The position numbers were made by a program, and so were the translations under genes. Positions 38,338 to 61,471 of a DNA stretch of 64,000 nucleotides are shown here, piece after piece (within the stretch, counting starts at the first letter, position 1; the number at the start of each line of letters is the position of its first letter). The notes beneath the pieces were generated by a model. The model was not told where the DNA came from and searched no databases. It worked only from the letters and a program-made list of their open reading frames with translations. The stretch is from positions 280,654-344,653 of the forward strand of contig OZ245718.1 in assembly GCA_965227045.1 (NCBI GenBank), written 5' to 3'. This DNA comes from Actinomycetes bacterium. Lineage in GTDB: Bacteria; Actinomycetota; Actinomycetes; S36-B12.

Positions 38338-38423
38338 GGTCCGCACATTGTGCCGTCCGCGTGCTCGGCTTTGCCATCGGCGTTGGCGTTTGCGACACTT
38401 GCTTCCTGAGCCCCTCAAGGCTC

Positions 38424-38465: not shown

Positions 38466-38478
38466 TCTAGGGGATGTC

Positions 38479-38793
38479 ATGTCGTGGCTCATTCTCATTT
38501 TGTCCGGGTGCCTTGAAGCGGTCTGGGCGACCTCGCTCGGCCTGTCCAAGGGCTTCAGTCGGCTCATTCCGACGGTCGTCTTCGTCCTCGCGCTGCTCGC
38601 GAGCATGGGCGGACTCGCCTTCGCCATGCGCGATCTGCCCGTAGGCACGGCGTATGCCGTGTGGGTGGGCATCGGGGCCGTCCTCACCGTCGCCTACGCG
38701 ATGGCGACGGGTGCCGAATCGGTTTCGGTCCTCAAGATCGTGTTTCTGTTCGGCATCGTCGCCTGCGTCGTCGGGCTCAAGGTGACGCACTAG
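38479..38793 (+). CDS. sugE: SMR family guanidinium exporter (SugE/Gdx)
   Basis: 104 aa with 4 TM helices and the conserved Glu in TM1 (GCLEAVWA). Confidence 0.88.
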   Translation: MSWLILILSGCLEAVWATSLGLSKGFSRLIPTVVFVLALLASMGGLAFAMRDLPVGTAYAVWVGIGAVLTVAYAMATGAESVSVLKIVFLFGIVACVVGLKVTH

Positions 38794-43710: not shown

Positions 43711-45129
43711 ATGCGAGACGACATCGACGATTCCGACGCCTACGTGCCCCTGGGCGACGCGACTGGCGACTACGAGCGTGAGGAACGCCAGGCGCTCCGG
43801 CGCGTCCAGGGCCTGTCGACCGAGCTCGAGGACGTCACCGAGGTCGAGTACCGGCAGGTCCGCCTCGAGCGCGTCGTCCTCGCCGGCATCTGGACCGACG
43901 GCACGGCCCGCGACGCCGAGCGCAGCCTCGCCGAGCTCGCCCTGCTCGCCGAGACCGCGGGATCGGTGGTGCTCGAGGGGGTCATCCAGCGCCGCGACAC
44001 CCCCGACCCGGCCACGTACCTGGGCTCGGGAAAGGTCAAGGAGTTGCGCGAGATCGTCGTCGCGACCGGGGCCGACACCGTCATCTGCGACGGCGAGCTC
44101 ACTCCGGGCCAGCTGCGCCAGCTCGAGGAGATCGTCAAGGTCAAGGTCGTCGACCGGACCTGGCTGATTCTCGACATCTTCGCCCAGCACGCACGCAGCC
44201 GCGAGGGCCAGGCTCAGGTCTCGCTCGCGCAGATGCAGTACCTGCTCCCGCGCCTGCGCGGCTGGGGCGAGTCGCTCTCGCGCCAGGCCGGCGGTCGTGC
44301 CGGCGGCGCGTCCGGCGGAGTGGGCACGCGTGGTCCCGGCGAGACGAAGATCGAGACGGACCGTCGGCGTATCCGCTCACAGATGTCCAAGCTGCGTCGC
44401 CAGCTCAAGGACATGGAGAAGTCGCGCACGACCCAGCGCGCCGCGCGCCATCGGGCTGGCGTTCCGGCCGTGGCCATCGCCGGCTACACGAACGCGGGCA
44501 AGTCGAGCGTGCTGAACCGCATGACCGGCGCCGGCGTTCTCGTCGAGAACGCGCTGTTCGCCACCCTCGACCCCACCGTGCGCAAGACCAAGACACCGAG
44601 CGGACGCGACTACACGGTTGCCGACACCGTTGGCTTCGTCCGCCACCTGCCGCACCAGCTGGTCGAGGCCTTCCGCTCGACCCTCGACGAGGTGCGCGAC
44701 GCCGACCTGATCCTGCACGTGGTCGACGGCTCCGACGACGCGCCCGACGAGCAGATCGCGGCCGTGCGCGAGGTGCTCAACGACATCGACGCGGGCCACG
44801 TGCCCGAGCTGATCGTCATCAACAAGGCAGATATCGCCGATCCGGAGACGGTCGCGAACCTGCTGCGTCGCTACCCGCACTCGGTCGTCGTGTCCGCGAT
44901 GACTGGCCTCGGCTTCGACGAGCTGCTCGACACCATCGAGCGCGAACTGCCATCGCTCCTGCAGGACGTCGACATCGTCGTGCCGTACAGCCGAGGTGAC
45001 CTCGTCTCCCGTGCGCATCGTCAAGGCGAGGTGCTCAAGACCGAGCACGACGAGGCGGGAACCCACCTGCAGGCGCGCGTGCCCGAGTCGCTGGCCAACG
45101 AGCTGCGTCTGGCGGCCAGTGGCGCGTGA
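43711..45129 (+). CDS. hflX: GTPase HflX
   Basis: GYTNAGKSS G1 motif and the HflX N-terminal domain. Confidence 0.92.
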   Translation: MRDDIDDSDAYVPLGDATGDYEREERQALRRVQGLSTELEDVTEVEYRQVRLERVVLAGIWTDGTARDAERSLAELALLAETAGSVVLEGVIQRRDTPDPATYLGSGKVKELREIVVATGADTVICDGELTPGQLRQLEEIVKVKVVDRTWLILDIFAQHARSREGQAQVSLAQMQYLLPRLRGWGESLSRQAGGRAGGASGGVGTRGPGETKIETDRRRIRSQMSKLRRQLKDMEKSRTTQRAARHRAGVPAVAIAGYTNAGKSSVLNRMTGAGVLVENALFATLDPTVRKTKTPSGRDYTVADTVGFVRHLPHQLVEAFRSTLDEVRDADLILHVVDGSDDAPDEQIAAVREVLNDIDAGHVPELIVINKADIADPETVANLLRRYPHSVVVSAMTGLGFDELLDTIERELPSLLQDVDIVVPYSRGDLVSRAHRQGEVLKTEHDEAGTHLQARVPESLANELRLAASGA

Positions 45130-47095
45130 CGAGAAGGCGCTGAAGGCGGCTCTCGCGGCAGTCGTCACCACCCTCGGCGGGGACGAGCGCGACGGGCAGT
45201 TGCGCATGGCCGAGGCCGTCGCCGCGGCGCTCGACGGCTCCGGTCACGCCGTGGTCCAGGCCGGCACTGGCACCGGCAAGTCCGTCGGCTACCTCGTGCC
45301 CGCCGCCCTGCACGCCACCGCGCCGGAAGGCGGGGCGGTGATCGTGGCGACCGCGACCATCGCGTTGCAGAAGCAGCTCGTCGACCGCGACCTGCCGCGC
45401 GTTGCCGAGGCCCTTGCGCCGATCATCGGCCGACCGCTGAAGTTCGCGGTCCTCAAGGGCCGCAACAACTACGTGTGCCTGCAGAAGCTGCACGGCGCTC
45501 CGACCGAGGACGACTCCGAGGCCCTGTTCGAGACTCCCAAGAGCTCGCTCGCCGCGCAGGCCGTGGCCGTGCGCGAGTGGGCGGAGTCGACGAGCACCGG
45601 CGATCGCGACGAATACACCGACGACATCGACCCCCGTGTGTGGCGCGGGTTCTCCGTGGGCCGCCGCGAGTGCATGGGCGAGTCCCGCTGCCCGTTCGGC
45701 GAGGAGTGCTTCACGGTGCTGCGCCGGACGATCGCGCAGGAGGCCGACATCGTCGTGACCAACCACGCGATGCTCGCCATCGATGCGCTCGAGGGCATCC
45801 CGGTGCTGCCCGAGCACGACGGCGTGATCATCGACGAGGGCCATGAACTGGTCGACCGCGCCACCGCCGCCGTGACCGGCGAGCTGTCCGTCGCCATGGT
45901 CGAGCGGGCAATGGGCCGCTCGCGCAAGCTGCTCAGTCCGGAGACGGCCGAGCGCCTCGCGGTCGCTGCCGAGGACTTCGACGACTCCCTGCGCCTGGCC
46001 GCAGGAGCGCTGAGCGGGCCGACCCGCCAGCTCGAACTCAGCACCGACCTCAACCTCGCCGTCACCGTGATCCGCGATACCTGCCAGAAGGCGATGGCCG
46101 AGGTCAACGCGGACAAGGACTCCAAGGACCCGGATGCGCTCGCCGCCAGGCAGCAGGCGCGCGGTGCGCTCGAGGAGGTCTACGACGTCGCCAGCACGCT
46201 CCTGCTCACCGGCGAGCACGACGTCGTGTGGCTCGACCCGGGGGAGAACCGTCCGCCCGTCCTCAAGGTCGCTCCGCTGTCGGTGTCCGGGCTGCTGCGC
46301 AGCGCGCTGTTCGACAAGACGCCGGTCGCGATCACCAGCGCCACGCTGACCGTCGGCGGGGGATTCGACTCGCTGCTCAGGTCGCTCGGGCTCGACGACG
46401 GCAAGACCACCACGATCGACGTGGGCTCCCCGTTCGATCACGCGAAGCAGGGCATCCTCTACGTCGCTAAGGACGTGCCCGCTCCCGGCCGCGACGGCGT
46501 GGCGATGGAGGCCCTCGATGAGCTAGCCGACCTCATCACCGCAGCGGGCGGTCGCACCCTTGCGCTGTTCAGCAGTTGGCGCGGTGTCGAGCGTGCCGCG
46601 GAGTACCTGCGGGTGCGGTTCAGCAAGCGACCCGACCTGCCGATCCTCGTGCAGCGCCGCGGAGATGCGGTGGGCTCCCTTGTCGAGCGGTTCGCCGCCG
46701 ATCCGGCGAGCACCCTGCTCGGCACGGTGACGCTGTGGCAGGGAGTCGACGTGCCGGGGGAGTCGTGCATCCTCGTGGTCATTGACCGCATCCCGTTCCC
46801 GCGCCCGGACGACCCGCTGCTGGCCGCACGCCAGAAGGCGGTCGACGATGCGGGCGGCTCGGGGTTCAGGTCGGTGTCTGTTCCACGGGCTGGGCTGCTG
46901 CTTGCCCAGGGCGCCGGCCGGCTCATCCGCGGCACCGAGGACCGCGGCGTGGTCGCCGTGCTGGACTCCCGGCTCGCCACCTCGGGCTACTCCCGTGCTC
47001 TTCGGGACAGCCTGCCGCCCTTTTGGTACACGACCGACCGACCAGTGGTTATGGGTGCTCTTGAGCGGCTGAACGCGGAGATCTTGGCTCGCTGA
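45119..47095 (+). CDS. ATP-dependent DNA helicase, DinG/XPD-like with Fe-S cluster
   Basis: AGTGTGKS Walker A, DEGH box, and four Cys (CLQK...CMGESRCPFGEEC). Confidence 0.8.
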   Translation: MARDEKALKAALAAVVTTLGGDERDGQLRMAEAVAAALDGSGHAVVQAGTGTGKSVGYLVPAALHATAPEGGAVIVATATIALQKQLVDRDLPRVAEALAPIIGRPLKFAVLKGRNNYVCLQKLHGAPTEDDSEALFETPKSSLAAQAVAVREWAESTSTGDRDEYTDDIDPRVWRGFSVGRRECMGESRCPFGEECFTVLRRTIAQEADIVVTNHAMLAIDALEGIPVLPEHDGVIIDEGHELVDRATAAVTGELSVAMVERAMGRSRKLLSPETAERLAVAAEDFDDSLRLAAGALSGPTRQLELSTDLNLAVTVIRDTCQKAMAEVNADKDSKDPDALAARQQARGALEEVYDVASTLLLTGEHDVVWLDPGENRPPVLKVAPLSVSGLLRSALFDKTPVAITSATLTVGGGFDSLLRSLGLDDGKTTTIDVGSPFDHAKQGILYVAKDVPAPGRDGVAMEALDELADLITAAGGRTLALFSSWRGVERAAEYLRVRFSKRPDLPILVQRRGDAVGSLVERFAADPASTLLGTVTLWQGVDVPGESCILVVIDRIPFPRPDDPLLAARQKAVDDAGGSGFRSVSVPRAGLLLAQGAGRLIRGTEDRGVVAVLDSRLATSGYSRALRDSLPPFWYTTDRPVVMGALERLNAEILAR

Positions 47096-47126: not shown

Positions 47127-47339
47127 ATGTCCAGGACGAACATTGGTATCGACGACGAACTGATCGCGGCCTGCATGAGCCGCTACGACCTGCCGACCAA
47201 GAAGAGCGCCGTCGAGTTCGCGCTGCGCAGACTGCTCGCCTCGCGACCGTCGAGGGCGGACTGGGACGCGATGTGCGGCGTCGGATGGGACGGCGACCTG
47301 GACGCGATGCGCTCGGGCGAACGAACGTTCGACCTGTGA
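47127..47339 (+). CDS. vapB: type II antitoxin VapB
   Basis: MSRTNIGIDDELI N-terminus. GTGA overlap with vapC. Confidence 0.8.
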   Translation: MSRTNIGIDDELIAACMSRYDLPTKKSAVEFALRRLLASRPSRADWDAMCGVGWDGDLDAMRSGERTFDL

Positions 47340-47737
47340 GCGGCGTTCTCGTCGATTCGTCCGTCTGGGTGGAGTTCTTCCGAGGGGACGCGGGTCTTCG
47401 AGATCAGCTCCAGGAGTTGGCCGAAGGTCCAGGGATCCTCACGTGCGAACCCGTGATGATGGAGATCTTGTGCGGCGTTCGCGGTCCCGCCATCCACGAT
47501 GTCGAAGCATTCCTTGACGGCTTCACGTCGATCTCACTTCGGCCCGACCTTGACTTCCGTCAGGCCTCTGGTGTGCGAAGGCGACTACGAGACCGCGGAC
47601 TGACGATTCGATCGGGGATGGACGCGCTGATCGCCACGATCGCAATCAACCACGACGCGACACTGCTGCATCGCGACGCCGACTTCGAGCGCATCGCCGA
47701 GGTGACGACGCTTCGGCAGGAGCGCTGGGTCGCCTAG
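47336..47737 (+). CDS. vapC: type II toxin VapC (PIN domain ribonuclease)
   Basis: VLVDSSVWVEFF, EPVMMEIL and DALIATIA acidic PIN motifs. Confidence 0.85.
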   Translation: MSGVLVDSSVWVEFFRGDAGLRDQLQELAEGPGILTCEPVMMEILCGVRGPAIHDVEAFLDGFTSISLRPDLDFRQASGVRRRLRDRGLTIRSGMDALIATIAINHDATLLHRDADFERIAEVTTLRQERWVA

Positions 47738-49100: not shown

Positions 49101-49832
49101 CTAGAGGCGGCGGAGGACGGTGACGACCTTGCCCATCACAGTGGCGTGGTCGCCCAGGATTGGCGTGTAGGCCGGGTTGTGCGGCATCAGCCACACGTGG
49201 CCGTCGCTGCGCTTGAAGGTCTTGACCGTGGCCTCGTCATCGAGCAGGGCCGCCACGATGTCGCCGTTGTCTGCGCTGTTCTGCTGGCGCACGACCACCC
49301 AGTCGCCGTCGCAGATCGCCGCGTCGATCATCGAGTCGCCGACGACGCGCAGCATGAACAGCTCGCCCTCGCCCACCAGCTCGCGCGGCAGCGGGAACAC
49401 CGCCTCGACCTCCTGCTCGGCGAGGATCGGGCCGCCGGCGGCGATCCGGCCCAGGACCGGGATGTAGGCGGGAACCGGCTGGTTGGACTGCTCCGGGTCG
49501 TCGATCATCGGCACCACACGCAGGCGGGCGGCACCCTCGAGCGGGGAGTCGGGGCGCGCCGCGGTGGGCATGTCGGCGGGATCGGCGACGACGAGGGCGC
49601 GCGGGCGGTTCGGATCGCGGCGCAGCCAGCCCAGGCGCTCGAGGGTCGTGAGCTGGTGGGCGACGCTGCTGGGGGAGGTCAGGCCCACGCCCTCGCCGAT
49701 CTCGCGGACGCTCGGCGGGTAGCCGCGCTGCTCGACGGTGTCGCGGATGACGGCCAGGACCGCACGCTGGCGAGGGGTCAGGCCGGTCTCGTCGGGCGGT
49801 CCGTCGGGCAGTTCGGTGACTCGTGCGACCAC
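49101..49832 (-). CDS. lexA: LexA repressor
   Basis: Winged HTH and S24 peptidase motifs (GDSMIDA, catalytic Lys region). GTG 49832. Confidence 0.93.
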
Positions 49833-50070: not shown

Positions 50071-50469
50071 ATGGCTCTCGCGGCTCCCTTCCCCGCCGCC
50101 CGCCCGGCTCTTCGCCAGGTCCGGCAGCAGCCCGCAGCCCGTCGCACGTCCGCCCCGACCGATCGGGCCTCGCTGCGCCTGACCCGCCGCGGACGCATCG
50201 TCCTCATGTTCGCCAGCTCGATGTTCCTGCTGCTGGCCGTCATCGCGTCCGGGCGGTTCTCCGCCGACGCGGGCACCTCGCTTGTCGACCAGGGCCGGGC
50301 CACCGGCGTTGTCGTCGTGCAGCCGGGGGAGAGCCTGTGGCAGATCGCCAGCGAGATCGCCCCGGGCGTCGATCCGCGCGAGACCGTGTCTGCGATTCGC
50401 AGCCTCAATGGGCTCGGTGACACCACTGTCGTGGCAGGCCAGTCGATCGTCGTGCCGGTCTCCCGCTAG
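50071..50469 (+). CDS. LysM domain membrane protein
   Basis: TM helix followed by VVVQPGESLWQIAS...LNGLGDTTVVAGQSIVVP (LysM). Divergent from lexA, as in other actinobacteria. Confidence 0.8.
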   Translation: MALAAPFPAARPALRQVRQQPAARRTSAPTDRASLRLTRRGRIVLMFASSMFLLLAVIASGRFSADAGTSLVDQGRATGVVVVQPGESLWQIASEIAPGVDPRETVSAIRSLNGLGDTTVVAGQSIVVPVSR

Positions 50470-50567
50470 CTCGTTTCCTCACGGACTCGCCTCCCCGAGC
50501 CGTGGATTAGCCGCGACACGCGGGGTTTCACCCTTGCGGAATGTCAGAGCGCAGGAGTACGTTGCTA

Positions 50568-50583
50568 CCCCTAGATGTAGTAG
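50568..50583. promoter_or_regulatory. candidate NrdR box 1
   Basis: The reverse complement CTACTACATCTAGGGG fits the core CwAtATaTwG of the NrdR box consensus. Confidence 0.45.
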
Positions 50584-50599
50584 TCACATGCTTGTTATT

Positions 50600-50615
50600 C
50601 ATCCACAGGTTGTGT
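50600..50615. promoter_or_regulatory. candidate NrdR box 2
   Basis: CATCCACAGGTTGTGT. Its centre is 32 bp from box 1, the canonical tandem spacing. Confidence 0.4.
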
Positions 50616-50715
50616 CCCTGCCTCTACAGGTCGTCCACAGGTCATCCCCAGCTGGATCCACAGCAGGGACGAAGTGGCGATACAGATGTGACGAGAGTGA
50701 CGGGAGGTTCCACTG

Positions 50716-51267
50716 ATGCGCTGTCCGTTCTGCAAGGAAGACGATTCGCGGGTCGTGGACTCCCGGGCGATCGACGATGGCCTGGCCATCCGCCGTCGCC
50801 GCGAGTGCTCGGGCTGCGGCCGGCGCTTCACCACGGCGGAGACCTCGGTCCTGTACGTGGTCAAGCGCTCGGGCGTCACCGAGCCGTTCAGCCGCTCGAA
50901 GGTCGTCAGCGGAGTCCGCAAGGCCTGCCAGGGCCGACCGGTCAACGACGACGACCTCGCGCTGCTCGCGCAGCAGGTGGAGGACACCGTCCGCGCCACC
51001 GGCAGCGCCGAGATCCCCGCGATGGAGATCGGCCTGGCCATCCTCGGCCCACTACGTGAGCTCGACGAGGTGGCCTACCTCCGATTCGCGTCCGTCTACC
51101 GCTCCTTCGACAACCTCGAGGACTTCGAGGCCGAGATCGCGCTCCTGCGCGCCGAGGGCGAGCCGACGGGCCGCGAGCCGCACCACGACACGACTTCCCA
51201 GACTTCCCAGACGCCGTCGAACGATCCGCACGACCAGCACGACCCCTCAACTTCCCACTCCCGGTAA
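50716..51267 (+). CDS. nrdR: transcriptional repressor NrdR
   Basis: MRCPFC...[10 protein letters not shown] zinc ribbon and ATP-cone, plus a low-complexity tail. Confidence 0.93.
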
Positions 51268-51291
51268 CCGCTCCTAAGAAAGGCAACACCC

Positions 51292-54144
51292 ATGTCTGTC
51301 GAGACCAGCGCACCAGCAGCCGAGGCCTTCATTCACAACACCCTGAAGGGCAAGGGCCTCGTCATCGAGCGCCTCTACACGACCGAGGGCATGCATCCTT
51401 ACGACGGCGTGAACTGGGAACGTCGCGACGTCCTGCAGACCAACTGGAAGTCCGGCGAGGTTGTCTTCGAGCAGCGCGGGGTGGAGTTCCCCGACTTCTG
51501 GAGCGTCAACGCCTCCACGATCGTCACCACCAAGTACTTCCGCGGCGCGGTGGGCACCGACAGCCGCGAGTGGAGCCTTCGGCAACTGCTCGACCGCGTC
51601 GTCCTCACCTACGTCAAGGCCGGCCGCGAGTACGGCTACTTCCGCACCGACCAGGACGCCGAGATCTTCGAGCACGAGCTCACCTACATGCTTCTGCACC
51701 AGGTGTTCAGCTTCAACTCACCGGTGTGGTTCAACGTCGGCACCGTGTCACCGCAGCAGGTCAGCGCCTGCTTCATCCTCGCCGTCGACGACACCATGGA
51801 CTCGATCCTCAACTGGTACCGCGAGGAGGGCATGATCTTCAAGGGCGGCTCCGGCGCCGGCCTCAACCTCTCGCGCATCCGCTCCAGCAAGGAGCTGCTC
51901 AAGTCCTCGGGCGGCACGGCCTCCGGCCCCGTCTCCTTCATGCGCGGTGCTGACGCGTCGGCCGGCACCATCAAGTCAGGCGGCGCCACGCGTCGCGCGG
52001 CGAAGATGGTCGTGCTCGACGTCGACCACCCCGACATCGAGGAGTTCATCGAGACGAAGGTGCGCGAGGAGGACAAGATCCGCGTCCTGCGCGACGCCGG
52101 CTACGACATGGACCTGGGCGGCAAGGACATCACGTCCGTGCAGTACCAGAACGCCAACAACTCGGTGCGCGTCTCCGACCTGTTCATGCACGCAGTGGAG
52201 AACGGCGAGCAGTTCGGCCTCACCGCCCGCATGGACGGCTCGATCGTCGAGACCGTCGATGCCAAGAAGCTGTTCCGCACCATGACCGAGGCGGCCTGGG
52301 CATGCGCCGATCCGGGCATCCAGTACGACGACACGATCAACGACTGGCACACCAACCCCGAGACCGGCCGCATCAATGCGTCCAACCCGTGCTCGGAGTA
52401 CATGAGCCTGGATAACTCCTCGTGCAACCTCGCCTCGCTGAACCTGCTGACGTTCCTCAAGGACGACGACACGTTCGACGGCGCCCGGTTCGCCAGGGCC
52501 GTCGAGTTCGTCATCACAGCGATGGACATCTCCATCTGCTTCGCCGACTTCCCGACCGAGGCGATCGGCGACACCACGCGTCGCTACCGCCAGCTCGGCA
52601 TCGGCTACGCCAACCTCGGCGCGCTACTCATGGCCACCGGCCTCCCGTACGACTCCGAGGCCGGCCGCTCGTTCGCCGCGGCGATCAGCAGCCTGATGAC
52701 GGGCACGGCCTACAAGCGCAGCGCCGAGCTCGCCGGCATCGTCGGCCCGTACGAGGGCTACGCCCGCAACATCGACGGCCACAAGCGCGTCATGCGCAAG
52801 CACGCGTCGGCCAACGACAACGTGCGTCACATGACCAGCCTCGACGGTGACGTCCTCAAGCTCGCCAACAAGGCGTGGGAAGAGGGCAACAAGATCGGCG
52901 AGAAGAACGGCTGGCGCAACGCGCAGGCATCGGTCCTCGCGCCCACCGGCACCATCGGCTTCATGATGGACTGCGACACGACCGGCATCGAGCCGGACTT
53001 CTCGCTGGTCAAGTTCAAGAAGCTGGTCGGCGGCGGCTCGATGCAGATCGTCAACCAGACGATCCCGCGTGCGCTGCGCCGCATGGGCTACGCCGAGGAG
53101 ACCATCGAGGCGATCATCGAGTACATCGGTGAGAACGGCCACGTCATCGACGCCCCCGGGCTGAAGACCGAGCACTACCCGGTCTTCGACTGCGCCATGG
53201 GCGCGCGTTCCATCACCCCGATGGGCCACGTGCGCATGATGGCCGCGGTGCAGCCGTTCATCTCCGGCGCGATCTCCAAGACCGTCAACATGCCTGAGAC
53301 AGCCACCATCGACGAGGTCGAGGAGATCTACTTCGAGGGCTGGAAGTACGGCCTCAAGGCTCTGGCGATCTACCGCGACAACTGCAAGGTTGGTCAGCCG
53401 CTCAGTGATGCCAAGGCGAAGAAGGTCGACGAGATCGTCGACGTCACCGCCGAGGCCGTTGCCGCCGCACTCGCCGGGCAGCCGATCCGCCACCGCCTGC
53501 CGAAGAGCCGCCCGTCGGTCACGACGAGCTTCTCCGTCGCAGGCGCCGAGGGCTACATGACCGCGGGGTCCTACCCCGACAACGGACTTGGCGAGGTCTT
53601 CCTCAAGCTCGGCAAGCAGGGCTCGACCCTGGCCGGTGTCATGGACGCGTTCTCGATCGCCATCAGCATCGCGCTGCAGTACGGCGTGCCGCTCGAGGCG
53701 TTCGTCAGCAAGTTCGTGAACATGCGGTTCGAGCCGGCCGGCATGACCGACGATCCGGACATCCGGATCTCGCAGTCGATCATGGACTACATCTTCCGCC
53801 GCCTGGCCCTGGACTACCTGCCCTACGAGACGCGTGCAGGACTCGGCATCCACACCGCCGACGAGCGCGCGGCAGTGGTCGCGGGCAACTACGGAGATCA
53901 GACACCGGCCGCATCAGCGGACCTGGATGTCGCGATCGACGATGCGGTCGAGGCCGAGGTGCTCGAGATCATCGAGAAGCCGGTCGCCAAGGCCAGCACG
54001 GCGCGCTCCAGCGCCGAGCTGCTCGAGGAGATCACCGGAATCGCATCCGATGCGCCGCTGTGCATGACCTGCGGGATCAAGATGCGGGCCGCTGGTTCGT
54101 GCTACGTGTGCGAGGGCTGCGGGAGCACGTCTGGCTGCAGCTGA
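51292..54144 (+). CDS. nrdJ: adenosylcobalamin-dependent ribonucleoside-diphosphate reductase (class II)
   Basis: 950 aa with active-site NPCSE and C-terminal CxxC...CxxC tail, in the nrdR-nrdJ operon. Confidence 0.93.
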   Translation: MSVETSAPAAEAFIHNTLKGKGLVIERLYTTEGMHPYDGVNWERRDVLQTNWKSGEVVFEQRGVEFPDFWSVNASTIVTTKYFRGAVGTDSREWSLRQLLDRVVLTYVKAGREYGYFRTDQDAEIFEHELTYMLLHQVFSFNSPVWFNVGTVSPQQVSACFILAVDDTMDSILNWYREEGMIFKGGSGAGLNLSRIRSSKELLKSSGGTASGPVSFMRGADASAGTIKSGGATRRAAKMVVLDVDHPDIEEFIETKVREEDKIRVLRDAGYDMDLGGKDITSVQYQNANNSVRVSDLFMHAVENGEQFGLTARMDGSIVETVDAKKLFRTMTEAAWACADPGIQYDDTINDWHTNPETGRINASNPCSEYMSLDNSSCNLASLNLLTFLKDDDTFDGARFARAVEFVITAMDISICFADFPTEAIGDTTRRYRQLGIGYANLGALLMATGLPYDSEAGRSFAAAISSLMTGTAYKRSAELAGIVGPYEGYARNIDGHKRVMRKHASANDNVRHMTSLDGDVLKLANKAWEEGNKIGEKNGWRNAQASVLAPTGTIGFMMDCDTTGIEPDFSLVKFKKLVGGGSMQIVNQTIPRALRRMGYAEETIEAIIEYIGENGHVIDAPGLKTEHYPVFDCAMGARSITPMGHVRMMAAVQPFISGAISKTVNMPETATIDEVEEIYFEGWKYGLKALAIYRDNCKVGQPLSDAKAKKVDEIVDVTAEAVAAALAGQPIRHRLPKSRPSVTTSFSVAGAEGYMTAGSYPDNGLGEVFLKLGKQGSTLAGVMDAFSIAISIALQYGVPLEAFVSKFVNMRFEPAGMTDDPDIRISQSIMDYIFRRLALDYLPYETRAGLGIHTADERAAVVAGNYGDQTPAASADLDVAIDDAVEAEVLEIIEKPVAKASTARSSAELLEEITGIASDAPLCMTCGIKMRAAGSCYVCEGCGSTSGCS

Positions 54145-54160
54145 ACTGAACATCTCGATG

Positions 54161-54196
54161 TCGAAGGCCCGCCAACTTGGGAAGGCGGGTCTTCGA
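54161..54196 (+). terminator. hairpin terminator of nrdJ
   Basis: tcgaaggcccgcc-N10-ggcgggtcttcga: 13-bp stem with one G-U pair, 17 nt after the stop. Confidence 0.7.
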
Positions 54197-54329
54197 CTTG
54201 TGTGGTCGGACTTCTGTCGACCCGTTGAGGTGGAAGGGATCTAGCGCGGTACGGCAGCAGTGGTCGGACGGGAGTACCGGATCCAATCGATTCGGCGACC
54301 ATCGACGATGGAGGCGTGCAGCCCGGGCG

Positions 54330-57300
54330 CTAGACGCCCTCGACATCGAAGGGTTCGTCCGGAACTGAGATGTCGGACGGGTCAGATGGCTCGGCGCCTT
54401 CATCGACCGTTCGTCGAACTCTGAGAAAGGGTCCCAGTTCTGTGATGTCTGCGTGCGAGGAAGCCATTGCGACGTACCAAATATCTGAGTACGCCATGTT
54501 CCGATAGTCATCGTCGTCAATCGGAAGGGCATGACGTTCGCTCAGTGTGCCGATCACAAGGTCGGAATCGAGGTCAGAAAGGCGTTCGCTCAGCCAGCCT
54601 GGATCGACTAGTAGGACTCCCTGCGTCTCGCCATGTTCGGGGAACTCGATCGCTCGTGCGACGACTCTCCCATCAGCAGTCCACTCGGGCTGGTGGCCAA
54701 CCCACTTGGCGGTCCCGAGCAGTTCGGACGTCGGAGTGTAGAAGTTGACGGACTCGTCGATTGAACAGTCCAGGGTGCTCCCCTCCCACAGGTACTGCTC
54801 GACGGCAGGCCTGGGTAGGGCGCCGGCTTCGATCAGTTCCTCTGGGATCCCGTGGTAGTCACTCCATGGCCCTGCAGTGGCGGATACAGGAGCCCACCCT
54901 GTCTCGCCGAGGTACTGCTGACGGGGCCTGCTTACGTCTGGCATCCAGCGACCAGACAGTCCTCTCGCGGCGATGAAGTCGAAGAGTTCTTTGCCGCGAC
55001 CTCGCGGCAGAAGCCACGAGAACTGCAGGAAGAAGACGTCCTTCTCTCTTTTCGACATCCCTCGGCGTTGTGAATTGTCCCGGTCCCAGGTCGAGTATCG
55101 CTGTATCGCGATCCATTTTTCGCCCTTGGCATCCGTGCAGGAGAACATCGACTTTGCCGCGGGAAGGTCGTCGGTCTTCGCTGCCCACTCGTCGGGTGCG
55201 CAACTCACATCCATGTCCGGTGCGGTGAGGGTTGCCCACTTGGCGTTTGAGTCGCGCGCTACTCGACATACTTGAGATCCTCCTATGCGCACACTTGGTG
55301 GAAGGGTTGGATCGAAGTCTCGTCCGAACCACTCCCACGGTCCTTCGTAGACGTTCCGTTCGGCGGTCCAGGGCTCGTGGGAGGGATGGAAATTGTCGGC
55401 CAGACGGCCAAGGAGTTCTCGGTGTGCAATCCATTGGTACTTCTTGCCGAACCGTTCAGCCTTGTGGCCTTCGCGGCCGCGCCGTAGGTCGTTGCTTCTT
55501 TCGAAGTCCTCGAAGCGTTCCGCCGACCAGCCAAGTTCGATGGAGCGGGCCGCGATCCACCTGCCCGCCCAATCGGCGTTAACCCTGTCGAGGGGGTTCT
55601 TGCGATCCCTTCCCTTCGGTGGGGGTCCTGTGAGGGGATGCCAACTGAAGAAGCCGACGTCACTCTTGACGACGTACTTATTGAAGTCTCCGTACCAGTC
55701 CAAGCACGAGTGAAGGATGCTGCCCGCACGCCAACTCTTGTACTTGCCTTCCCCGTCCTTGACTGGACCGTGCGTCGATTCAAGTTGTTCCCGTGTGGGA
55801 GGCTCCGTGGGCGGATTCGCGTCGTATGGAGGCTCAAAGTCGGCAAGTCGATCCCTCGGTAGCAGTCCGCGGTCGACGCACCACGCTGCGATTCCCCGGG
55901 ATGAGTCGCGCGCGAGTACGTCTACGGGAGCGCCGTCACGGAACCAAGATTTGAGCGTCTCCAATACTGCACCAGCGCCGACGAGATCCGAGTCTCCCCC
56001 AACCAGCACTGCACCGTACGCGCACGTAAGCATGCGCTCTTGGACGTATGCATCATCGACCTGTCGGGCGGAACCGATGAGCGCTGCGGCTAGATGCAAT
56101 CGGTGAGAAAGGAGGGAGATCAACGCCTTTGAGGTCGTGTCCCTAAGAAAGCGGTTTGGCGATGTGAACAGCCACATGAAGGCAGTCGCAGCGAGCCGAA
56201 CTTCATCATCGTCGGCGGTGTCGGAATCTAGTTGTGCCCAGCCAATTAGGCCGGAGAAGGCATCGGAGTCTTTATCGAGTCCGTACGTAGAGATCGACCA
56301 CGCAGCATCTCGATCGGGCATGGAAAGCTCCGACAGTTGTGCATGGAGCCAATCAGCATTCGCGGGATGACCAGTTCGCGCCGCAAGCGCGAGTACGACG
56401 TCGGCGATTTCGTCGTCTGCTGCTAGGAGGCGGTCGCGAAGGGCCTCTAGGGCTCGTCCGCCAAAGGCGGCCGGTACTCGGTCTATCAGACTCTCGAGAA
56501 AGGCTTCCTGCAGTCTGTAGTCGTGCGCTGCCTCGGGCAGGATGTCAACGAGTTCGATCCCGCCCAGTTCCGGCAGAATCACTGCCAGCGATCGCCACGA
56601 CCAGGGTTCTTGTGCGACGCGGTCTACTAGGAGCGAGTTAGTCCCCGCTTCCGACGGAAGGGGTCGACCGCCCTGCAGTCCAAGGTCATCTAGGGTCGCA
56701 ATCAGGCGGCTGGCGAGTATGTGCTCCGAGTACGCCTGGAAGGGAAATCCCACTGCCTCCGTTCCGTCGTAAGTCGGGCGAAGCTCAACAAGCCCTTCGC
56801 TCGCCAACTGCTGAAAGAGAGTGTTTGGCCATAACCGACCGGGCAGAAGTTCGTCGACCCCCTGCTCAGTCGAATCGCGAGGGACTGGTTGTCCCTTGTT
56901 GCTCAGGATTAGGTCAGCAACTCGGTCCATTGCGTCGGAAACTACGTGGCTAGTTGGGGAAAGGCCGAGTCGGCCAGTGACCTTCTTGCCGATCACTCGG
57001 GCAAAGCGGTCGAACAGGCCTGAACGCGTCGGCACTTCGACGTCTCCGTCCGATTCAGCTGCCAAAACTTCGCAGTACATGCGCAAGAAGAGTGGACTTC
57101 GGAAAGCTGGGTCGTAACGCCGACTGGACGGGACCGGAACCTTGAACAGCCGACAATATGCAGCGAGTGCCTCTGCCTCGCTGCCGGCTAGTCCGGTGTG
57201 CCGAACGGTAAGCAAGCCTTTAGGCGCCCCGATCACATCGCGGTAGTCCGTTCGGTAAGAGACGACTAAGGCAATGTGGGGGAACCTTTGGACCTGAGCG

Positions 57301-58586
57301 AGCATTGCAGGAAGCTCGTGATGCCACATTCCAGGGTTCTGCGACTCGTTGATTGCGTCAAATACGAGAAGCGCACGGCAATACCTCGCTTCGGCCATCG
57401 AGTCGAGCGCTTGGAGAAACTCGTCGCTTGTTGACGAGATGCCAAGTGACTTCGCTGCCGCCGGCCACCAGTTTTTGTCGCTGAGTCGCTGACCCAGTAT
57501 CGCGATCGCTGGTGTACCACGCTGGAGGCAACCGTCGACTGCACGCAACAGGGCATGCGTCTTGCCTTGGCCTGCTGGACCGACCAGAGCTAGCGCCCTA
57601 TTAGCCAAGGCTTCTGCTGCGCTCCCCGTTACCACCGCTTCTAGGCCTTGAAGCGCGGCGATCGCGGCATCCATGTTTCGGAGCCCGGATCCACGTAAGA
57701 ACTCTGACTCGTGGTAGGCGAGGCCGAGCAGATCGGTTGTGAGATGCGCAAGATCGGATAGATCGAACTCTGCGTACGGCGATGAATCACCGTCATTGTC
57801 GGCGTTGTCGGAGAGCGCTGCACACGCTTCATGCAATCGGGGGATTAGGGGTTCCGCTAGGAACGAGCTTTGGCCCCAGATCCCGGCGTCCTTCGTCAGG
57901 GCCTCGACCGCAGTGTTCGATAAGGCGCGAAGGCGGGTTAGGAATGCTGGGCTTGCCACCACGGCATCGAGAACATCATTTATCGAAGACGCTGTGTCGG
58001 CCTCCGGCGTGTAACGATCACCAGCCACGCTAATTGATTCACCGAATCTTGCCAACAGCCATTCGTCGGAGAGATCAATTCCGCCAAACCAGTACTCGCG
58101 GCGACCGGCATGCTCCTTCAACGTCAACGTAGCCGTAATGTCGCCGGCACGAATAGTCGAGAAATCGATGCTGCTTGCAGCTGGGATGCTCGTTCGCCAA
58201 CTGGCTACCGCGTCATTCCAACGGTCCTGATCGGACTTCATTGGACCGCTGCCGGAGTCAGTAAAGTCGTACGGCACAACGAAGGTCAGTTTGGTCAGGC
58301 TCGGTCGCTTGGTGCATACGGCCTCAACGGACTCGCGCATTCCTCCCAACGCATCGGCGAGGCACTCGTGAAACTTTGCTTGGAAGCCTTCTTGATGGCC
58401 GTCCGCATACAGTTCGTACCACTCGACCCCTGCGTCGGGAGCTCGGGTCTTGCGCGTCTCCAGGTGGCCTTCGGCTACGTCAGGGCGGAGTTGATACGCG
58501 AGCTCCTCCCACGCACGAGCCTGGCTGCCTTCATGAACACGAATATCGCGTAGACGGACCCCGCCGCGGTTGTGCTGTGCTTTCAC
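54330..58586 (-). CDS. large STAND-like P-loop NTPase with N-terminal Mrr-like PD-(D/E)xK nuclease signature (candidate antiphage protein)
   Basis: 1418 aa. WEELAYQL...PDAGVEW...GFQAKF at aa 26-72; Walker A GPAGQGKT at aa 336-343; Walker B LLVFDAINE at aa 406-414; SPLFLRMYCE follows. Long C-terminal region without a motif I recognise. Low-GC codon usage. GTG start follows gggaga. Confidence 0.6.
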   Translation of the reverse strand: MKAQHNRGGVRLRDIRVHEGSQARAWEELAYQLRPDVAEGHLETRKTRAPDAGVEWYELYADGHQEGFQAKFHECLADALGGMRESVEAVCTKRPSLTKLTFVVPYDFTDSGSGPMKSDQDRWNDAVASWRTSIPAASSIDFSTIRAGDITATLTLKEHAGRREYWFGGIDLSDEWLLARFGESISVAGDRYTPEADTASSINDVLDAVVASPAFLTRLRALSNTAVEALTKDAGIWGQSSFLAEPLIPRLHEACAALSDNADNDGDSSPYAEFDLSDLAHLTTDLLGLAYHESEFLRGSGLRNMDAAIAALQGLEAVVTGSAAEALANRALALVGPAGQGKTHALLRAVDGCLQRGTPAIAILGQRLSDKNWWPAAAKSLGISSTSDEFLQALDSMAEARYCRALLVFDAINESQNPGMWHHELPAMLAQVQRFPHIALVVSYRTDYRDVIGAPKGLLTVRHTGLAGSEAEALAAYCRLFKVPVPSSRRYDPAFRSPLFLRMYCEVLAAESDGDVEVPTRSGLFDRFARVIGKKVTGRLGLSPTSHVVSDAMDRVADLILSNKGQPVPRDSTEQGVDELLPGRLWPNTLFQQLASEGLVELRPTYDGTEAVGFPFQAYSEHILASRLIATLDDLGLQGGRPLPSEAGTNSLLVDRVAQEPWSWRSLAVILPELGGIELVDILPEAAHDYRLQEAFLESLIDRVPAAFGGRALEALRDRLLAADDEIADVVLALAARTGHPANADWLHAQLSELSMPDRDAAWSISTYGLDKDSDAFSGLIGWAQLDSDTADDDEVRLAATAFMWLFTSPNRFLRDTTSKALISLLSHRLHLAAALIGSARQVDDAYVQERMLTCAYGAVLVGGDSDLVGAGAVLETLKSWFRDGAPVDVLARDSSRGIAAWCVDRGLLPRDRLADFEPPYDANPPTEPPTREQLESTHGPVKDGEGKYKSWRAGSILHSCLDWYGDFNKYVVKSDVGFFSWHPLTGPPPKGRDRKNPLDRVNADWAGRWIAARSIELGWSAERFEDFERSNDLRRGREGHKAERFGKKYQWIAHRELLGRLADNFHPSHEPWTAERNVYEGPWEWFGRDFDPTLPPSVRIGGSQVCRVARDSNAKWATLTAPDMDVSCAPDEWAAKTDDLPAAKSMFSCTDAKGEKWIAIQRYSTWDRDNSQRRGMSKREKDVFFLQFSWLLPRGRGKELFDFIAARGLSGRWMPDVSRPRQQYLGETGWAPVSATAGPWSDYHGIPEELIEAGALPRPAVEQYLWEGSTLDCSIDESVNFYTPTSELLGTAKWVGHQPEWTADGRVVARAIEFPEHGETQGVLLVDPGWLSERLSDLDSDLVIGTLSERHALPIDDDDYRNMAYSDIWYVAMASSHADITELGPFLRVRRTVDEGAEPSDPSDISVPDEPFDVEGV

Positions 58587-58972
58587 GCATTCTCCCTAGG
58601 AGCTGCGAGCGTTGTCATGGCGCAAACGGTACTGACTAGTGAGGGTCGTAGACGGAAAGCATTCTCGACTGTCGGTCTTACGCCGCGGTGAGCTCCGAAC
58701 CTCCGTAGCTCGCCTATGGTCAGGTTCCAGCGACCTAGCAGCCGGTTCAGCTCGCTGACCGAGATGTCGAATGCTCCTACGCCGCAATTCGCCTTGCCCC
58801 TTCATTCACTCGAACTCTGCGAGCCTGAACCATCTGCTCCAAGGCGTTTGCCTGAGTGCTCGCGCGTGATCGACGATGTCGCACGTGTGCCGCCCCGCCG
58901 TCAGACGTCACGACTCCCACCGATTGAGTCGAAGCTTCGACACCTGGACGATGCCGGCTATGGCGCTGACGA

Positions 58973-59007
58973 CGAAGCCCCGCACCTTGACGCGGTGCGG
59001 GGCTTCG
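58973..59007 (-). terminator. hairpin terminator of the SHOCT gene
   Basis: cgaagccccgcac-N9-gtgcggggcttcg: 13-bp perfect stem, 14 nt beyond the stop at 59021. Confidence 0.7.
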
Positions 59008-59020
59008 CGCTGTCGCTGCT

Positions 59021-59410
59021 TTAGCTGGCGAGCGCCTTCGTCTTGAGCGAGTCGAACTCGGCCTGCGTGATCGCACCGGAGTCGAGAAGCGACTTGGCCG
59101 AGGCGATCTGGTCGGTCGCTGTTGCCCCGCTGCCGGCCATCGACTTGATGTACTCCGCCTGCGCCGCATGCATCTGCTTGGCCTGCTCGAGCTGGCGCTC
59201 CTGCATGCCCTTGCCGCGGGCGATGACGTATACGAGGATGCCGAGCCACGGCACGATGATGACGAAGATGACCCAGACGGTCTTCGCGAGTCCACCGAGG
59301 TCGGAGCTGCGGAAGATGTCGCCGAGGACCCAGAACAGGCACATGAACCAGGCGAAGAAGAGGAAGAACTCGAACAGGACGATCAGGAACGATCCATTGT
59401 CGTCGAACAT
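59021..59410 (-). CDS. PLDc_N / SHOCT domain membrane protein
   Basis: Two TM helices (FFAWFMCLFWVLGDIF...) and C-terminal SLLDSGAITQAEFDSLKTKAL (SHOCT). Confidence 0.75.
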   Translation of the reverse strand: MFDDNGSFLIVLFEFFLFFAWFMCLFWVLGDIFRSSDLGGLAKTVWVIFVIIVPWLGILVYVIARGKGMQERQLEQAKQMHAAQAEYIKSMAGSGATATDQIASAKSLLDSGAITQAEFDSLKTKALAS

Positions 59411-59494
59411 TGCGTTGCACTCGCTTTCGATGATGGCCCGGAGGGGCCGTTGGTTAGCCAGACTGGGCAGTCGAACGCACTGTCCAACGGAAGA

Positions 59495-60238
59495 ATGGCA
59501 CTCGTGAGCGCTTCTGGGCGGCAAGGTCTGCAATTCGGCACGGCGGCAGCGGCGTACGAGAGCGGCCGGCCCTCCTATCCGGTCGAGGTGGTCGACTGGC
59601 TCCTGCCCTCGGCCGGGGTGCAGGTCGTCGAGGTTGGTGCCGGCACTGGCAAGTTCACCCAGGTGCTGGTTGAGCGCGGATTCGACGTCACCGCGACCGA
59701 GCCGGACGCGGGCATGCGTGCTGCGCTGTCGGCGTCGCTGCCGTCCGTCCGGGTGATGGAGGGCTTCGCGGAGTCGATCCCTCTGGCCGACGGATGCGCC
59801 GATGCCGTGCTCGGGGCGCAGTGCTGGCACTGGGTCGACCAGGCGGCGGCGTCGCTCGAGGCCGCACGTGTCCTTCGGCCCGGGGGCATCCTCGGGCTGT
59901 TGTGGAACTACCGCGACGAGTCCGACCCGTGGGTCGCGGGGATTTCCGCGATCCTGGCGGAGTTCGGTCAGGATCCGGGGCCTGACGATGACCCCGTCCA
60001 GCACGCGCCATTCGGGCCGTTCGAGGAGTTCGCATTCCCCTGGGAGCACGACACCACGGTCGAGGGCGTCGTCGACATGATCGCCTCGCGCAGTTACGCG
60101 ATCGCCCTGCCCGCGGATCGTCGTGCCGAGCTCCTGGACCGGATCCGGGAGCACGCCCTTGCCCATCCCGCCCTTGAGGCCGGGGACCGCCTCGTCGTGC
60201 CGTACGTCACGTATGCGTTCAAGGCAGGAATGAGTTGA
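59495..60238 (+). CDS. class I SAM-dependent methyltransferase
   Basis: VVEVGAGTGKFT motif I. ATG 59495 lies inside track ORF 59168..60238. Confidence 0.8.
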   Translation: MALVSASGRQGLQFGTAAAAYESGRPSYPVEVVDWLLPSAGVQVVEVGAGTGKFTQVLVERGFDVTATEPDAGMRAALSASLPSVRVMEGFAESIPLADGCADAVLGAQCWHWVDQAAASLEAARVLRPGGILGLLWNYRDESDPWVAGISAILAEFGQDPGPDDDPVQHAPFGPFEEFAFPWEHDTTVEGVVDMIASRSYAIALPADRRAELLDRIREHALAHPALEAGDRLVVPYVTYAFKAGMS

Positions 60239-60927
60239 GCGCCTCGACCGTTGCATCAGGCATGACTGAACCCCTCAAGGTCGATATCTGGTCCGACATC
60301 GCCTGCCCGTGGTGCTACGTGGGCAAGCGGCGCTTCGCCGAGGGCGTCCGACGCTACGAGGCGGCTGGCGGCGAGCGGCCGATCGAGGTCGAGTACCACT
60401 CCTATGAGCTCTCCCCGGGTACTCCCGTCGACTACGAGGGCAGCCACGTCGATTTCCTCGCCAATCACCTCGGTGTGGGATCGAAGCAGGCTGAGCAGAT
60501 GCTCACCCAGATGACTGACCTTGCCGCGACCGAGGGTCTGGACTTCGACTACGACACGCTTAAGAGCACCAAGACCCTCAAGGCCCACGAGCTGCTTCAC
60601 CTGGCGAAGGCCCACGGCCTCCAGGGCGAGATGAAGGAGCGCCTCATGAAGGCGTACTTCGTCGAGGGCCGGCACGTCGGCCGGATCGACGAGCTCGCCG
60701 ACCTGGCCGTCGAGGTCGGGCTGGATCGTGACGAGGTTCTCTCCGTGCTGAACGCGGGCACCTACGCCAACGACGTCCGCGCCGACATCGACCAGGCGCA
60801 GGCCTACGGCATCAACGGTGTGCCGTTCTATGTCATCGACGGCAAGTACGGGGTCTCCGGGGCGCAGGACCCGTCGATCTTCGCGAACGCCCTAGAGCAG
60901 GCTGCCAAGGAAGGGGCTTCCGCATGA
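60235..60927 (+). CDS. DsbA family oxidoreductase (FrnE-like)
   Basis: DIACPWCYVGKRRF thioredoxin-fold CPWC active site. Confidence 0.85.
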   Translation: MSASTVASGMTEPLKVDIWSDIACPWCYVGKRRFAEGVRRYEAAGGERPIEVEYHSYELSPGTPVDYEGSHVDFLANHLGVGSKQAEQMLTQMTDLAATEGLDFDYDTLKSTKTLKAHELLHLAKAHGLQGEMKERLMKAYFVEGRHVGRIDELADLAVEVGLDRDEVLSVLNAGTYANDVRADIDQAQAYGINGVPFYVIDGKYGVSGAQDPSIFANALEQAAKEGASA

Positions 60928-61031
60928 GCGAGTCGCCGTTCGTGATGGTGGGTAGTCTCGAGGCCGAGGCATGCGTCGACGGAGTCTGCTCCGTGCCAGC
61001 CGCTGCCGTCGAGACCACGGAGGAGTCCTAA
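60924..61031 (+). CDS. 35-aa acidic two-Cys micro-protein (not in ORF track)
   Basis: MSESPFVMVGSLEAEACVDGVCSVPAAAVETTEES. ATGA overlap with the DsbA-like gene and TAATG overlap with the next gene. G/C at the third position in 29 of 35 codons by hand count. Confidence 0.45.
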   Translation: MSESPFVMVGSLEAEACVDGVCSVPAAAVETTEES

Positions 61032-61471
61032 TGCCGATCACCGGTGAGTATGTCCCCAGCCAGAGCGCCTGGGTCGCTGACCAGGTCGCCGAGTATGAGG
61101 CGTCAGGCGGGCAGCGGGCCAACACCCTGATGGACACGGGCATCCCGATCATCATCGTGACGATGCTCGGCGCCGCGTCCGGCAAGGTCCGCAAGATCGG
61201 GCTCATGCGGGTCGAGCACGACGGCGAGTACGCCCTCGTCGCGAGCAAGGGCGGGGATCCCGAGCATCCGGCCTGGTACGCCAACCTGCTGGCCAATCCG
61301 TCGATCATGATCCAGGACGGCCCCGAGCCGCTGGATTACGTGGTCCACGAGATCTTCGGGGCCGAGCGCGACCTGTGGTGGGAGCGCGGCGCTGCCGTCT
61401 ATCCGCCCTACCTGGACTACCAGGCGAAGACAGACCGGATCATCCCGGTTCTCCTCGCCGTTCCCGCCTAG
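61031..61471 (+). CDS. deazaflavin (F420)-dependent nitroreductase family protein (DDN-like)
   Basis: GGDPEHPAWYANLLANP motif, with ggagga upstream of the ATG. Confidence 0.85.
   Translation: MPITGEYVPSQSAWVADQVAEYEASGGQRANTLMDTGIPIIIVTMLGAASGKVRKIGLMRVEHDGEYALVASKGGDPEHPAWYANLLANPSIMIQDGPEPLDYVVHEIFGAERDLWWERGAAVYPPYLDYQAKTDRIIPVLLAVPA

Follow-up and report, generated by a model that had tools for sequence, protein, structure and literature searches.

An Avs2-type candidate anti-phage gene with a predicted Mrr-like nuclease effector in a low-GC islet of an actinobacterium

The Avs2 proteins characterised in the literature cited here come from Escherichia coli and Klebsiella and were tested in E. 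coli (PMC13601566, PMC11564622), and the main text of a survey of actinobacterial defence systems contains neither Avs nor AVAST (PMC10482375). Here we analysed avs2, the single gene of a low-GC islet (positions 54197-58972) in a 64,000-nucleotide (nt) stretch of contig OZ245718.1 from an Actinomycetes bacterium (assembly GCA_965227045.1); this full stretch is called the window below. Judged from sequence profiles, the product of avs2 is an AVAST type 2 (Avs2) protein; it belongs to a known family, within which it is new and uncharacterised, and does not represent a new system. Avs2 proteins are bacterial immune sensors that recognise a DNA-packaging enzyme of phages and respond by destroying DNA. 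The segment is very probably a horizontally acquired single-gene anti-phage locus, which encodes an Avs2 pattern-recognition receptor with an Mrr-like nuclease and would act by terminase-triggered abortive infection. It adds a stand-alone Avs2 with a canonical nuclease effector to an actinobacterial lineage with few cultured relatives, and it is a reasonable candidate for asking whether terminase recognition extends to actinophages, as in phage work on Streptomyces, Mycobacterium and Corynebacterium. It reveals no new mechanism or system; the family is well described, and the effector type is its commonest one.

The EcAvs2 protein (PDB 9o4e; Evans et al. 2026, PMC13601566) has the same helical extension, STAND NTPase, TPR domain and C-terminal sensor as the protein studied here, and is likewise a single-gene system with conserved Walker motifs. 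However, its host is E. coli and not an actinobacterium, its effector is uncharacterised and not a nuclease, whereas a PD-(D/E)xK nuclease fold was found here, and about 80-100 of its residues (994-1091) are missing in the actinobacterial protein. KpAvs2 from Klebsiella pneumoniae (Bechon et al. 2024, PMC11564622), which we compared by its published description and not by direct sequence alignment, has the same Mrr-family nuclease, STAND NTPase and Avs2-type sensor, and acts by abortive infection with DNA degradation (PMC11564622). Its active-site residues K71 and K337 have almost the same numbers as K71 and K342 here, which suggests the same domain layout. In contrast to avs2, KpAvs2 is part of a three-gene operon with Avap1 and Avap2 and needs Avap2. 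Avap1 and Avap2 occur with about 5% of Avs2 genes, the other 95% or so standing alone (PMC11564622). No gene for Avap1 (radical SAM) or Avap2 (DUF6375) was found adjoining avs2 or at five homologue loci that were inspected, and the protein is therefore a stand-alone Avs2 form.

Two members of other Avs families, SeAvs3 (PDB 8dgc, in complex with terminase) and EcAvs4 (8dgf), share the logic of sensor, tetramer and nuclease. The N-terminal nuclease fold of EcAvs4 is the closest to the avs2 effector, and the C-terminal sensor fold of SeAvs3 matches the avs2 sensor, but sequence profiles place the present protein in Avs2. EcAvs4, moreover, senses the portal protein and not terminase.

Family assignment and domain architecture

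The gene and the parts of its product (aa, amino acids) lie at the following positions of the window:

54330-58586, minus strand: avs2, complete 1418-aa open reading frame (ORF) with GTG start and TAG stop, AVAST type 2 protein
58092-58586, minus strand: effector, aa 1-165, predicted PD-(D/E)xK (Mrr-like) nuclease from an AlphaFold2 (AF2) model and Foldseek
58434-58436, 58389-58391 and 58374-58382, minus strand: candidate catalytic residues D51, E66 and Q69-A-K71, respectively, from conservation
57657-58091, minus strand: helical extension, aa ~166-310 (boundaries approximate), joining effector to NTPase
57207-57656, minus strand: STAND NTPase core, aa ~311-460, from the Walker motifs and the EcAvs2 ATPase alignment
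57558-57581, minus strand: Walker A motif GPAGQGKT, G336-T343 (K342 at 57561-57563)
57345-57371, minus strand: Walker B motif LLVFDAINE, with D410
55635-57206, minus strand: remaining STAND subdomains and TPR-like helical sensor, aa ~461-984, from the EcAvs2 alignment
55683-55691, minus strand: invariant G966-D967-F968
54333-55634, minus strand: beta-rich C-terminal sensor, aa 985-1418, from the alignment with EcAvs2 1092-1448
55473-55481 and 54783-54788, minus strand: sensor residues R1036-G1037-R1038 and W1267-E1268, respectively

Six Avs2 hidden Markov models of PADLOC matched the protein, with E values from 9e-261 (PDLC02164, the best) to 7e-120, and PDLC02162 (E 2e-152) matched it end to end, from residue 11 to 1372 against profile positions 4-1359 of 1379. 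No PADLOC family other than Avs2 matched this protein. The top NCBIfam match was also an Avs2 model, NF041813 (E 6e-177), in an alignment that leaves out the effector and the C-terminal end of the protein, and Pfam alone gave a sub-threshold NACHT match at residues 331-450. With a profile built from the alignment of 50 full-length homologues, EcAvs2 (9o4e_A) was matched at E 4e-170, against E 6e-95 with the single sequence. The match comprises two blocks: profile positions 167-979 aligned with EcAvs2 residues 163-993 (E 1.4e-120), the alignment starting within the helical extension, and positions 998-1354 with residues 1092-1448 (E 5.3e-45). These blocks span the helical extension, the STAND ATPase, the TPR domain and the beta-rich C-terminal sensor, and only the first ~165 residues have no EcAvs2 counterpart. 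This type of TPR domain and C-terminal sensor is specific to the Avs2 clade (PMC13581612). An earlier, sequence-only reading of the window had proposed an Avs/AVAST-type protein of three modules. The proposal is upheld and made precise as Avs2 by the PADLOC and EcAvs2 profile matches, and the modules were recovered as a nuclease fold, an NTPase with Walker A and B motifs, and a C-terminus homologous to the EcAvs2 sensor.

Compared with PDB entries directly by sequence, the N-terminal domain gave noise only, and a fold search was needed. The AF2 model of residues 1-205, computed from a 27-sequence alignment, had a mean predicted local distance difference test score (pLDDT) of 85.9, and its core showed the alpha-beta-beta-beta-alpha-beta arrangement of PD-(D/E)xK nucleases. 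A Foldseek search with this model revealed the EcAvs4 effector as the top match (8dgf_A, probability 1.00, E 1.7e-4), followed by EndoMS/NucS, Can2, Card1, PaqCI and Mus81. A weak NCBIfam Avs4 match (E 0.19) fell on nuclease residues 51-112. All 27 N-terminal segments had D51, E66, Q69 and K71, and across the 50 full-length homologues the conservation of these residues was at least 90%. Because Pfam Mrr_cat had no match in the protein, the label Mrr-like rests on fold and motif. Most Avs2 proteins carry Mrr-like nucleases (PMC13601566), and the modelled domain is a candidate DNA-cutting effector of this commonest Avs2 type. In KpAvs2, the substitutions K71A in the nuclease and K337A in the NTPase each abolish defence (PMC11564622); K342, D51 and K71, which the sequence-only reading had chosen as mutation targets, proved to be conserved residues that parallel these two positions.

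The helical extension of EcAvs2 is part of the terminase interface (PMC13601566), and that of KpAvs2 binds Avap2 (PMC11564622). The region of the Walker A and B motifs aligned to the EcAvs2 ATPase, and G336, G339, G341, K342, T343, D410, N413 and E414 were invariant in the 50 homologues.

The AF2 model of residues 985-1418 was helical first and then beta-rich, with beta-rich core blocks mostly at pLDDT 77-96. Its sole significant Foldseek matches were 8dgc_A/B, i.e., SeAvs3 bound to terminase (probability 1.00), in a PDB set that evidently did not contain 9o4e. In the EcAvs2 alignment, the counterpart of D981, a residue in contact with the Mg2+ of the bridging ATP (PMC13601566), is D967 within the invariant GDF motif. 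Likewise, R1130-G-R1132, whose two arginines are gamma-phosphate contacts, aligned with the conserved R1036-G1037-R1038, and E1362, a terminase backbone contact, with the invariant E1268 (EcAvs2 contacts from PMC13601566). Terminase sensing is a prediction from the retained counterparts of D981, R1130, R1132 and E1362, with those of T1128, E1364 and W1266 not kept.

Base composition, relatives and origin

The avs2 ORF was free of internal stops over its 1418 codons (~4.3 kb) in the ORF listing and translation, and a Shine-Dalgarno-like GGGAG was located 6-7 nt 5' of the GTG start. The single 1418-aa ORF with 386 nt upstream that had been read from the sequence was confirmed, the spacer 58587-58972 being exactly 386 nt long. 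Base composition was compared with that of the 42 other likely genes of the window, on which the codon-adaptation index was also trained. The guanine-plus-cytosine (GC) content of avs2 was 0.596 against 0.678 +/- 0.024 (z -3.4), its GC at third codon positions (GC3) was 0.640 against 0.861 +/- 0.046 (z -4.8), and its codon-adaptation index was 0.39 against 0.68 +/- 0.08; GC at the first and second positions (GC1 and GC2) was normal. Among 4.8-kb stretches of the window, the islet has the lowest GC (0.598), and any non-overlapping stretch has at least 0.657. The anomaly is confined to the DNA between two hairpins described below, and the neighbouring genes have host-like GC3 (SHOCT gene, 0.915; methyltransferase, 0.829; nrdJ, 0.93). 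The hand counts of G+C from which the segment had been called compositionally foreign (56, 55 and 65) were exact on recount, and the claim itself is borne out by GC, GC3 and codon adaptation.

To this was added a comparison with 160 related nrdJ loci within fetched flanks, 80 from species-representative genomes (NrdJ identity 71-86%) and 80 from metagenomes (NrdJ identity up to 90%). The avs2 gene was present at none of them, which together with the composition upholds the view of a foreign islet. The lexA-nrdR-nrdJ block was conserved in the related loci, but the downstream genes differed in every close relative, and the nrdJ 3' end is a general synteny breakpoint. The genes that follow nrdJ in the closest relatives, L090, L001 and L003, all had host-like GC3; they comprise a beta-lactamase-family gene with a MalT/LuxR regulator, a GGDEF gene with cysK/cysE, and PEP-hydrolase-like genes. 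A recurrent defence hotspot at the nrdJ 3' end was considered and rejected, as the relatives carry such ordinary metabolic and regulatory genes there. At two loci (L002 and L169), a SHOCT homologue was found within ~180 nt after nrdJ with nothing between, inverted relative to the window.

A metagenome contig from the European Nucleotide Archive (L081) showed the same nrdR-nrdJ-avs2-SHOCT order with one mismatch in 11,151 nt, so that the avs2 sequence is no assembly artefact. In an exact-protein look-up of NrdR, this was the only metagenome contig with the same islet; a look-up of DsbA gave no match, probably because its start codon had been set differently from that of the gene callers.

The nearest Avs2 homologues were 60-65% identical and scattered over Micromonospora, Actinokineospora, Hoyosella, Nocardioides, Arthrobacter, Rhodococcus, Nocardia and other genera. 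The actinobacterial Avs2 clade amounted to at least 88 clusters at 34% identity or more in the protein search, and homologue lengths agreed with the full-length avs2 ORF. Because these proteins fall below the NCBIfam naming threshold, they stand in the databases as 'hypothetical', 'ATP-binding' or 'NACHT domain' proteins, and the whole actinobacterial clade goes under such names. In view of the GC3 deviation, the absence from all 160 nrdJ loci and the scattered homologues of at most 65% identity, avs2 was very probably acquired horizontally by this actinobacterium.

The five homologue loci that we inspected presented five different contexts, several of them with defence genes. The Hoyosella homologue directly follows a BREX cluster (PglX, PglZ, SIR2, DUF87, BrxL), the Micromonospora homologue adjoins a tyrosine integrase and an SNF2 helicase, and the Nocardioides homologue lies between a type I restriction-modification system and a TrwC relaxase; one further homologue adjoins RHS, TIR and MazG genes, and another a NucS_C-domain protein. 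DNA similarity between the window and these loci was found only inside the ORF (54412-58564), the upstream spacer 58587-58972 not being conserved. The five homologue genes (L082, L085, L086, L088 and L089) had GC 0.60-0.63 and GC3 0.66-0.73, in surroundings of GC 0.57-0.69. Since their GC is 0.60-0.63 whatever the host, low GC characterises the clade as a whole, and the clade-wide value of ~0.60 may reflect frequent transfer or an intrinsic constraint. Plasmid homologues were distant only (<30% identity), one of them, in Rhodothermus, annotated avs2, and a search for phage homologues gave no real homologue; a plasmid or phage vehicle was rejected for these reasons.

Two of these loci deserve separate mention. 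In Hoyosella sp. YIM 151337 (L085:1-14254, JAPEIQ010000026.1), the homologue P0011 overlaps the brxL stop by 4 nt, and SIR2_2 and DUF87 ATPase genes are located between pglZ and brxL of the BREX cluster, forming a compact composite defence island. Contig L081 (ERZ25074273, 20.4 kb) is 99.99% identical to window positions 50117-61267, but its first part (L081:1-3636), with an HNH endonuclease, an abhydrolase fragment and a tRNA-synthetase-class-I fragment, has no counterpart in the 64-kb window, which has lexA (49101-49832) at this place; the break lies at ~50117, with nrdR at 50716-51267. These first 3.6 kb reflect either chimeric assembly of the metagenome or a rearrangement, at strain level, beside the lexA/nrdR SOS boxes.

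Proposed mechanism and alternatives

The mechanism proposed here is drawn from homology to EcAvs2, KpAvs2 and SeAvs3 and from published work on Avs2, Avs3 and Avs4, and it is by this analogy that a trigger, oligomerisation, nuclease activity and a phenotype are suggested for avs2. In the uninfected cell, the protein would be an inactive monomer. Upon infection, the TPR domain and C-terminal sensor (aa ~461-1418) and the helical extension (aa ~166-310) would dock onto the ATPase domain of the large terminase subunit of the phage, probably with a nucleotide at the sensor-terminase interface. Binding would free the STAND NTPase (Walker A K342) for tetramerisation, and the tetramer would gather four N-terminal nucleases (D51, E66, Q69-x-K71) for indiscriminate cleavage of double-stranded DNA. 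The infected cell would then stop growing or die ahead of phage release, i.e., by abortive infection.

Several observations weigh against an Avs2 receptor of this kind. Identity to EcAvs2 is below 30%. The NF041813 score of 590.9 bits lies below the curated equivalog cut-off of 1000 and covers residues 302-989 only, although this cut-off is the naming threshold of one model and not a defining feature of the Avs2 family. The confidence of the C-terminal model is moderate (mean pLDDT 70), and three EcAvs2 contacts are not conserved, T1128 being replaced by L1034, E1364 by T1271 and W1266 by Met. KpAvs2, the nuclease-type Avs2 that has been studied by experiment, also responds to Ksap1/2, which are not terminases, and depends on Avap2, a partner missing here. 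As to origin, no available relative has a syntenic right flank, which leaves the strict empty-site comparison incomplete: of the presence/absence polymorphism that the sequence-only reading had proposed to look for at the nrdJ-SHOCT junction, the absence of the gene from the 160 loci held, but a clean polymorphism was not shown.

The three unconserved interface residues and the low identity to characterised Avs2 proteins would also suit a genuine Avs2 defence protein whose natural actinophage trigger is not the large terminase but, for example, another phage protein folded like the terminase ATPase. Such proteins are Ksap1 and Ksap2, each of which activates KpAvs2 in vivo (PMC11564622), and vs.8, which activates EcAvs2 (PMC13601566). 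However, the known alternative triggers share the binding pocket of terminase and supplement it as activators, and terminase sensing is conserved in every tested Avs2 of the cited literature. The clade also retains, conserved or without exception, the RGR motif, the GDF aspartate and E1268, whose EcAvs2 counterparts touch the terminase-bound ATP, the bridging ATP and the terminase backbone, so a non-terminase trigger appears unlikely. We regard as doubtful a broader proposal, in which the actinobacterial clade would sense actinophage proteins in another mode or with another specificity, e.g., without bridging ATP or through a non-terminase trigger. It is prompted by the <30% identity to EcAvs2, the ~80-100 fewer residues and a bridging-ATP pocket that is partly conserved. 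The clade GC of ~0.60 could, as a separate point, stem from very frequent exchange of the gene between high-GC Actinomycetota through some vehicle.

Other explanations deny the gene a present role in defence. A relic left by an earlier transfer, silent or in decay and either not expressed or non-functional in this host, would explain why the 386-nt spacer offers no convincing promoter (one promoter-like consensus match, 58618-58589, which is no more than chance expectation), why codon adaptation is very poor (0.39) and why mobile-element machinery is gone. But a 4.3-kb ORF without stop or frameshift is unlikely to last without selection, the catalytic and nucleotide-binding motifs are all intact, and the Shine-Dalgarno-like GGGAG is correctly placed. 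Moreover, a metagenome yielded an essentially identical copy in an independent assembly, and the low GC, as a property of the whole family, is no sign of decay; we consider a relic very improbable. The proximity of avs2 to the lexA, nrdR and nrdJ region, together with the MalT-like STAND regulator downstream of nrdJ in L090, could instead point to a MalT/AfsR-type STAND NTPase with a housekeeping or regulatory role, or to a DNA-repair factor. Yet the output domain is a nuclease fold and no DNA-binding output domain is present, all profile and fold matches are Avs proteins, and the gene is absent from the 160 nrdJ loci and foreign in composition. An SOS-box scan of the avs2 upstream spacer found none, in contrast to perfect boxes at 25544 upstream of recA and at 50021 in the divergent region between lexA and nrdR, where near-perfect boxes also occur at 49952 and 50005. 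SOS control of avs2 through its nearness to lexA was rejected for lack of a box, and a housekeeping role is effectively excluded.

Hairpins, flanking genes and other features of the window

The islet is bounded by the following elements:

54162-54196: hairpin, folding on both strands, 18 nt 3' of the nrdJ stop
54197-54329, minus strand: downstream spacer, 133 nt, GC 0.639, 3' of the avs2 stop
58587-58972, minus strand: upstream spacer, 386 nt, GC 0.604, presumed avs2 promoter and 5' region
58973-59007: hairpin with a perfect 14-bp stem, 14 nt 3' of the SHOCT gene stop
59021-59410, minus strand: SHOCT gene, 129 aa, PLDc_N and SHOCT domains, GC3 0.915
59450-60238, plus strand: S-adenosylmethionine (SAM)-dependent methyltransferase, 262 aa

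Both hairpins were far more stable than shuffled controls. The first, folded over 54150-54205, reached -31 kcal/mol on the plus strand (z -5.6) and -25 kcal/mol on the minus strand (z -5.3), and with a fold on either strand it may stop transcription of both nrdJ and avs2, which converge on it. The second, which is the 100% complementary inverted repeat I19, reached -36 kcal/mol (z -6.0, folded over 58965-59015) and stands between the SHOCT gene and avs2, both on the same strand. A simple terminator scan called neither hairpin because both lack a U-tract. The sequence-only reading had placed two terminators here; the strong hairpins were recovered, but without a U-tract their function as terminators is presumptive.

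In the spacers, a Pfam scan of stop-free segments (at least 30 aa in the upstream spacer) gave no match, and an Rfam scan at gathering thresholds found no RNA family in the islet, the upstream spacer included. A stop-free minus-strand frame of 72 codons ('FDISVSELNRLLG...') in the upstream spacer appeared helix-turn-helix-like by eye and was rejected, having neither a start codon nor a Pfam match. There was no integrase or transposase at the islet, no tRNA in the whole 64-kb window and no significant direct repeat flanking the islet, and the earlier description of a single gene without integrase, transposase, tRNA or partner gene stands.

The housekeeping backbone that had been described on both sides was confirmed. 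The left flank contains pnp, ftsK, lhr, recA, a dinG-like helicase gene, a LacI-family regulator gene, lexA, nrdR and nrdJ, and the right flank genes for a PLDc_N-SHOCT membrane protein, the SAM methyltransferase, DsbA, an F420H2-dependent reductase and GlnA3 (type III glutamine synthetase). The SHOCT gene, however, had been taken as a 411-aa ORF (59021-60256, minus strand), which is an over-extension: the true gene has the 129 aa listed above, and the rest of that ORF is antisense to the methyltransferase gene. A PADLOC 'mad2' match of this methyltransferase (E 4e-14, confined to the methyltransferase core) was rejected as generic, the gene being housekeeping and host-like in composition.

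Two helicase genes of the window also gave PADLOC matches. One encodes a 1480-aa Lhr-type helicase (18914-23356, minus strand) with DEAD, Helicase_C, DEAD_assoc and four Lhr winged-helix domains, and was matched by DpdJ (E 8e-189); the other encodes the DinG-like helicase (44996-47095, plus strand, 699 aa), matched by type IV DinG (E 4e-120). The DpdJ/BrxH matches of the two were rejected as generic helicase matches in housekeeping repair genes of host-like composition, not defence systems, and automated searches for defence genes would flag both ORFs wrongly.

Between the dinG-like helicase and the LacI-family regulator lies a 104-aa ORF without a family match (47183-47497, minus strand), within which a SOS-box-like site with one mismatch, GCGAACGAACGTTCGA, was found at 47317-47332 (plus strand). 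This site may mark an unannotated small SOS-regulated gene. Two structured RNAs were detected elsewhere in the window. An Actino-pnp RNA leader (RF01688, 59.9 bits) is located at 2342-2421 on the plus strand, upstream of the PNPase gene (2387-4675). A Guanidine-III riboswitch (RF01763, 61.6 bits, E 2.7e-10) at 38405-38468 on the plus strand lies directly 5' of a 114-aa ORF (38449-38793) and overlaps its start; by analogy with other riboswitches of this class, the ORF probably encodes a small multidrug-resistance protein or guanidinium exporter.

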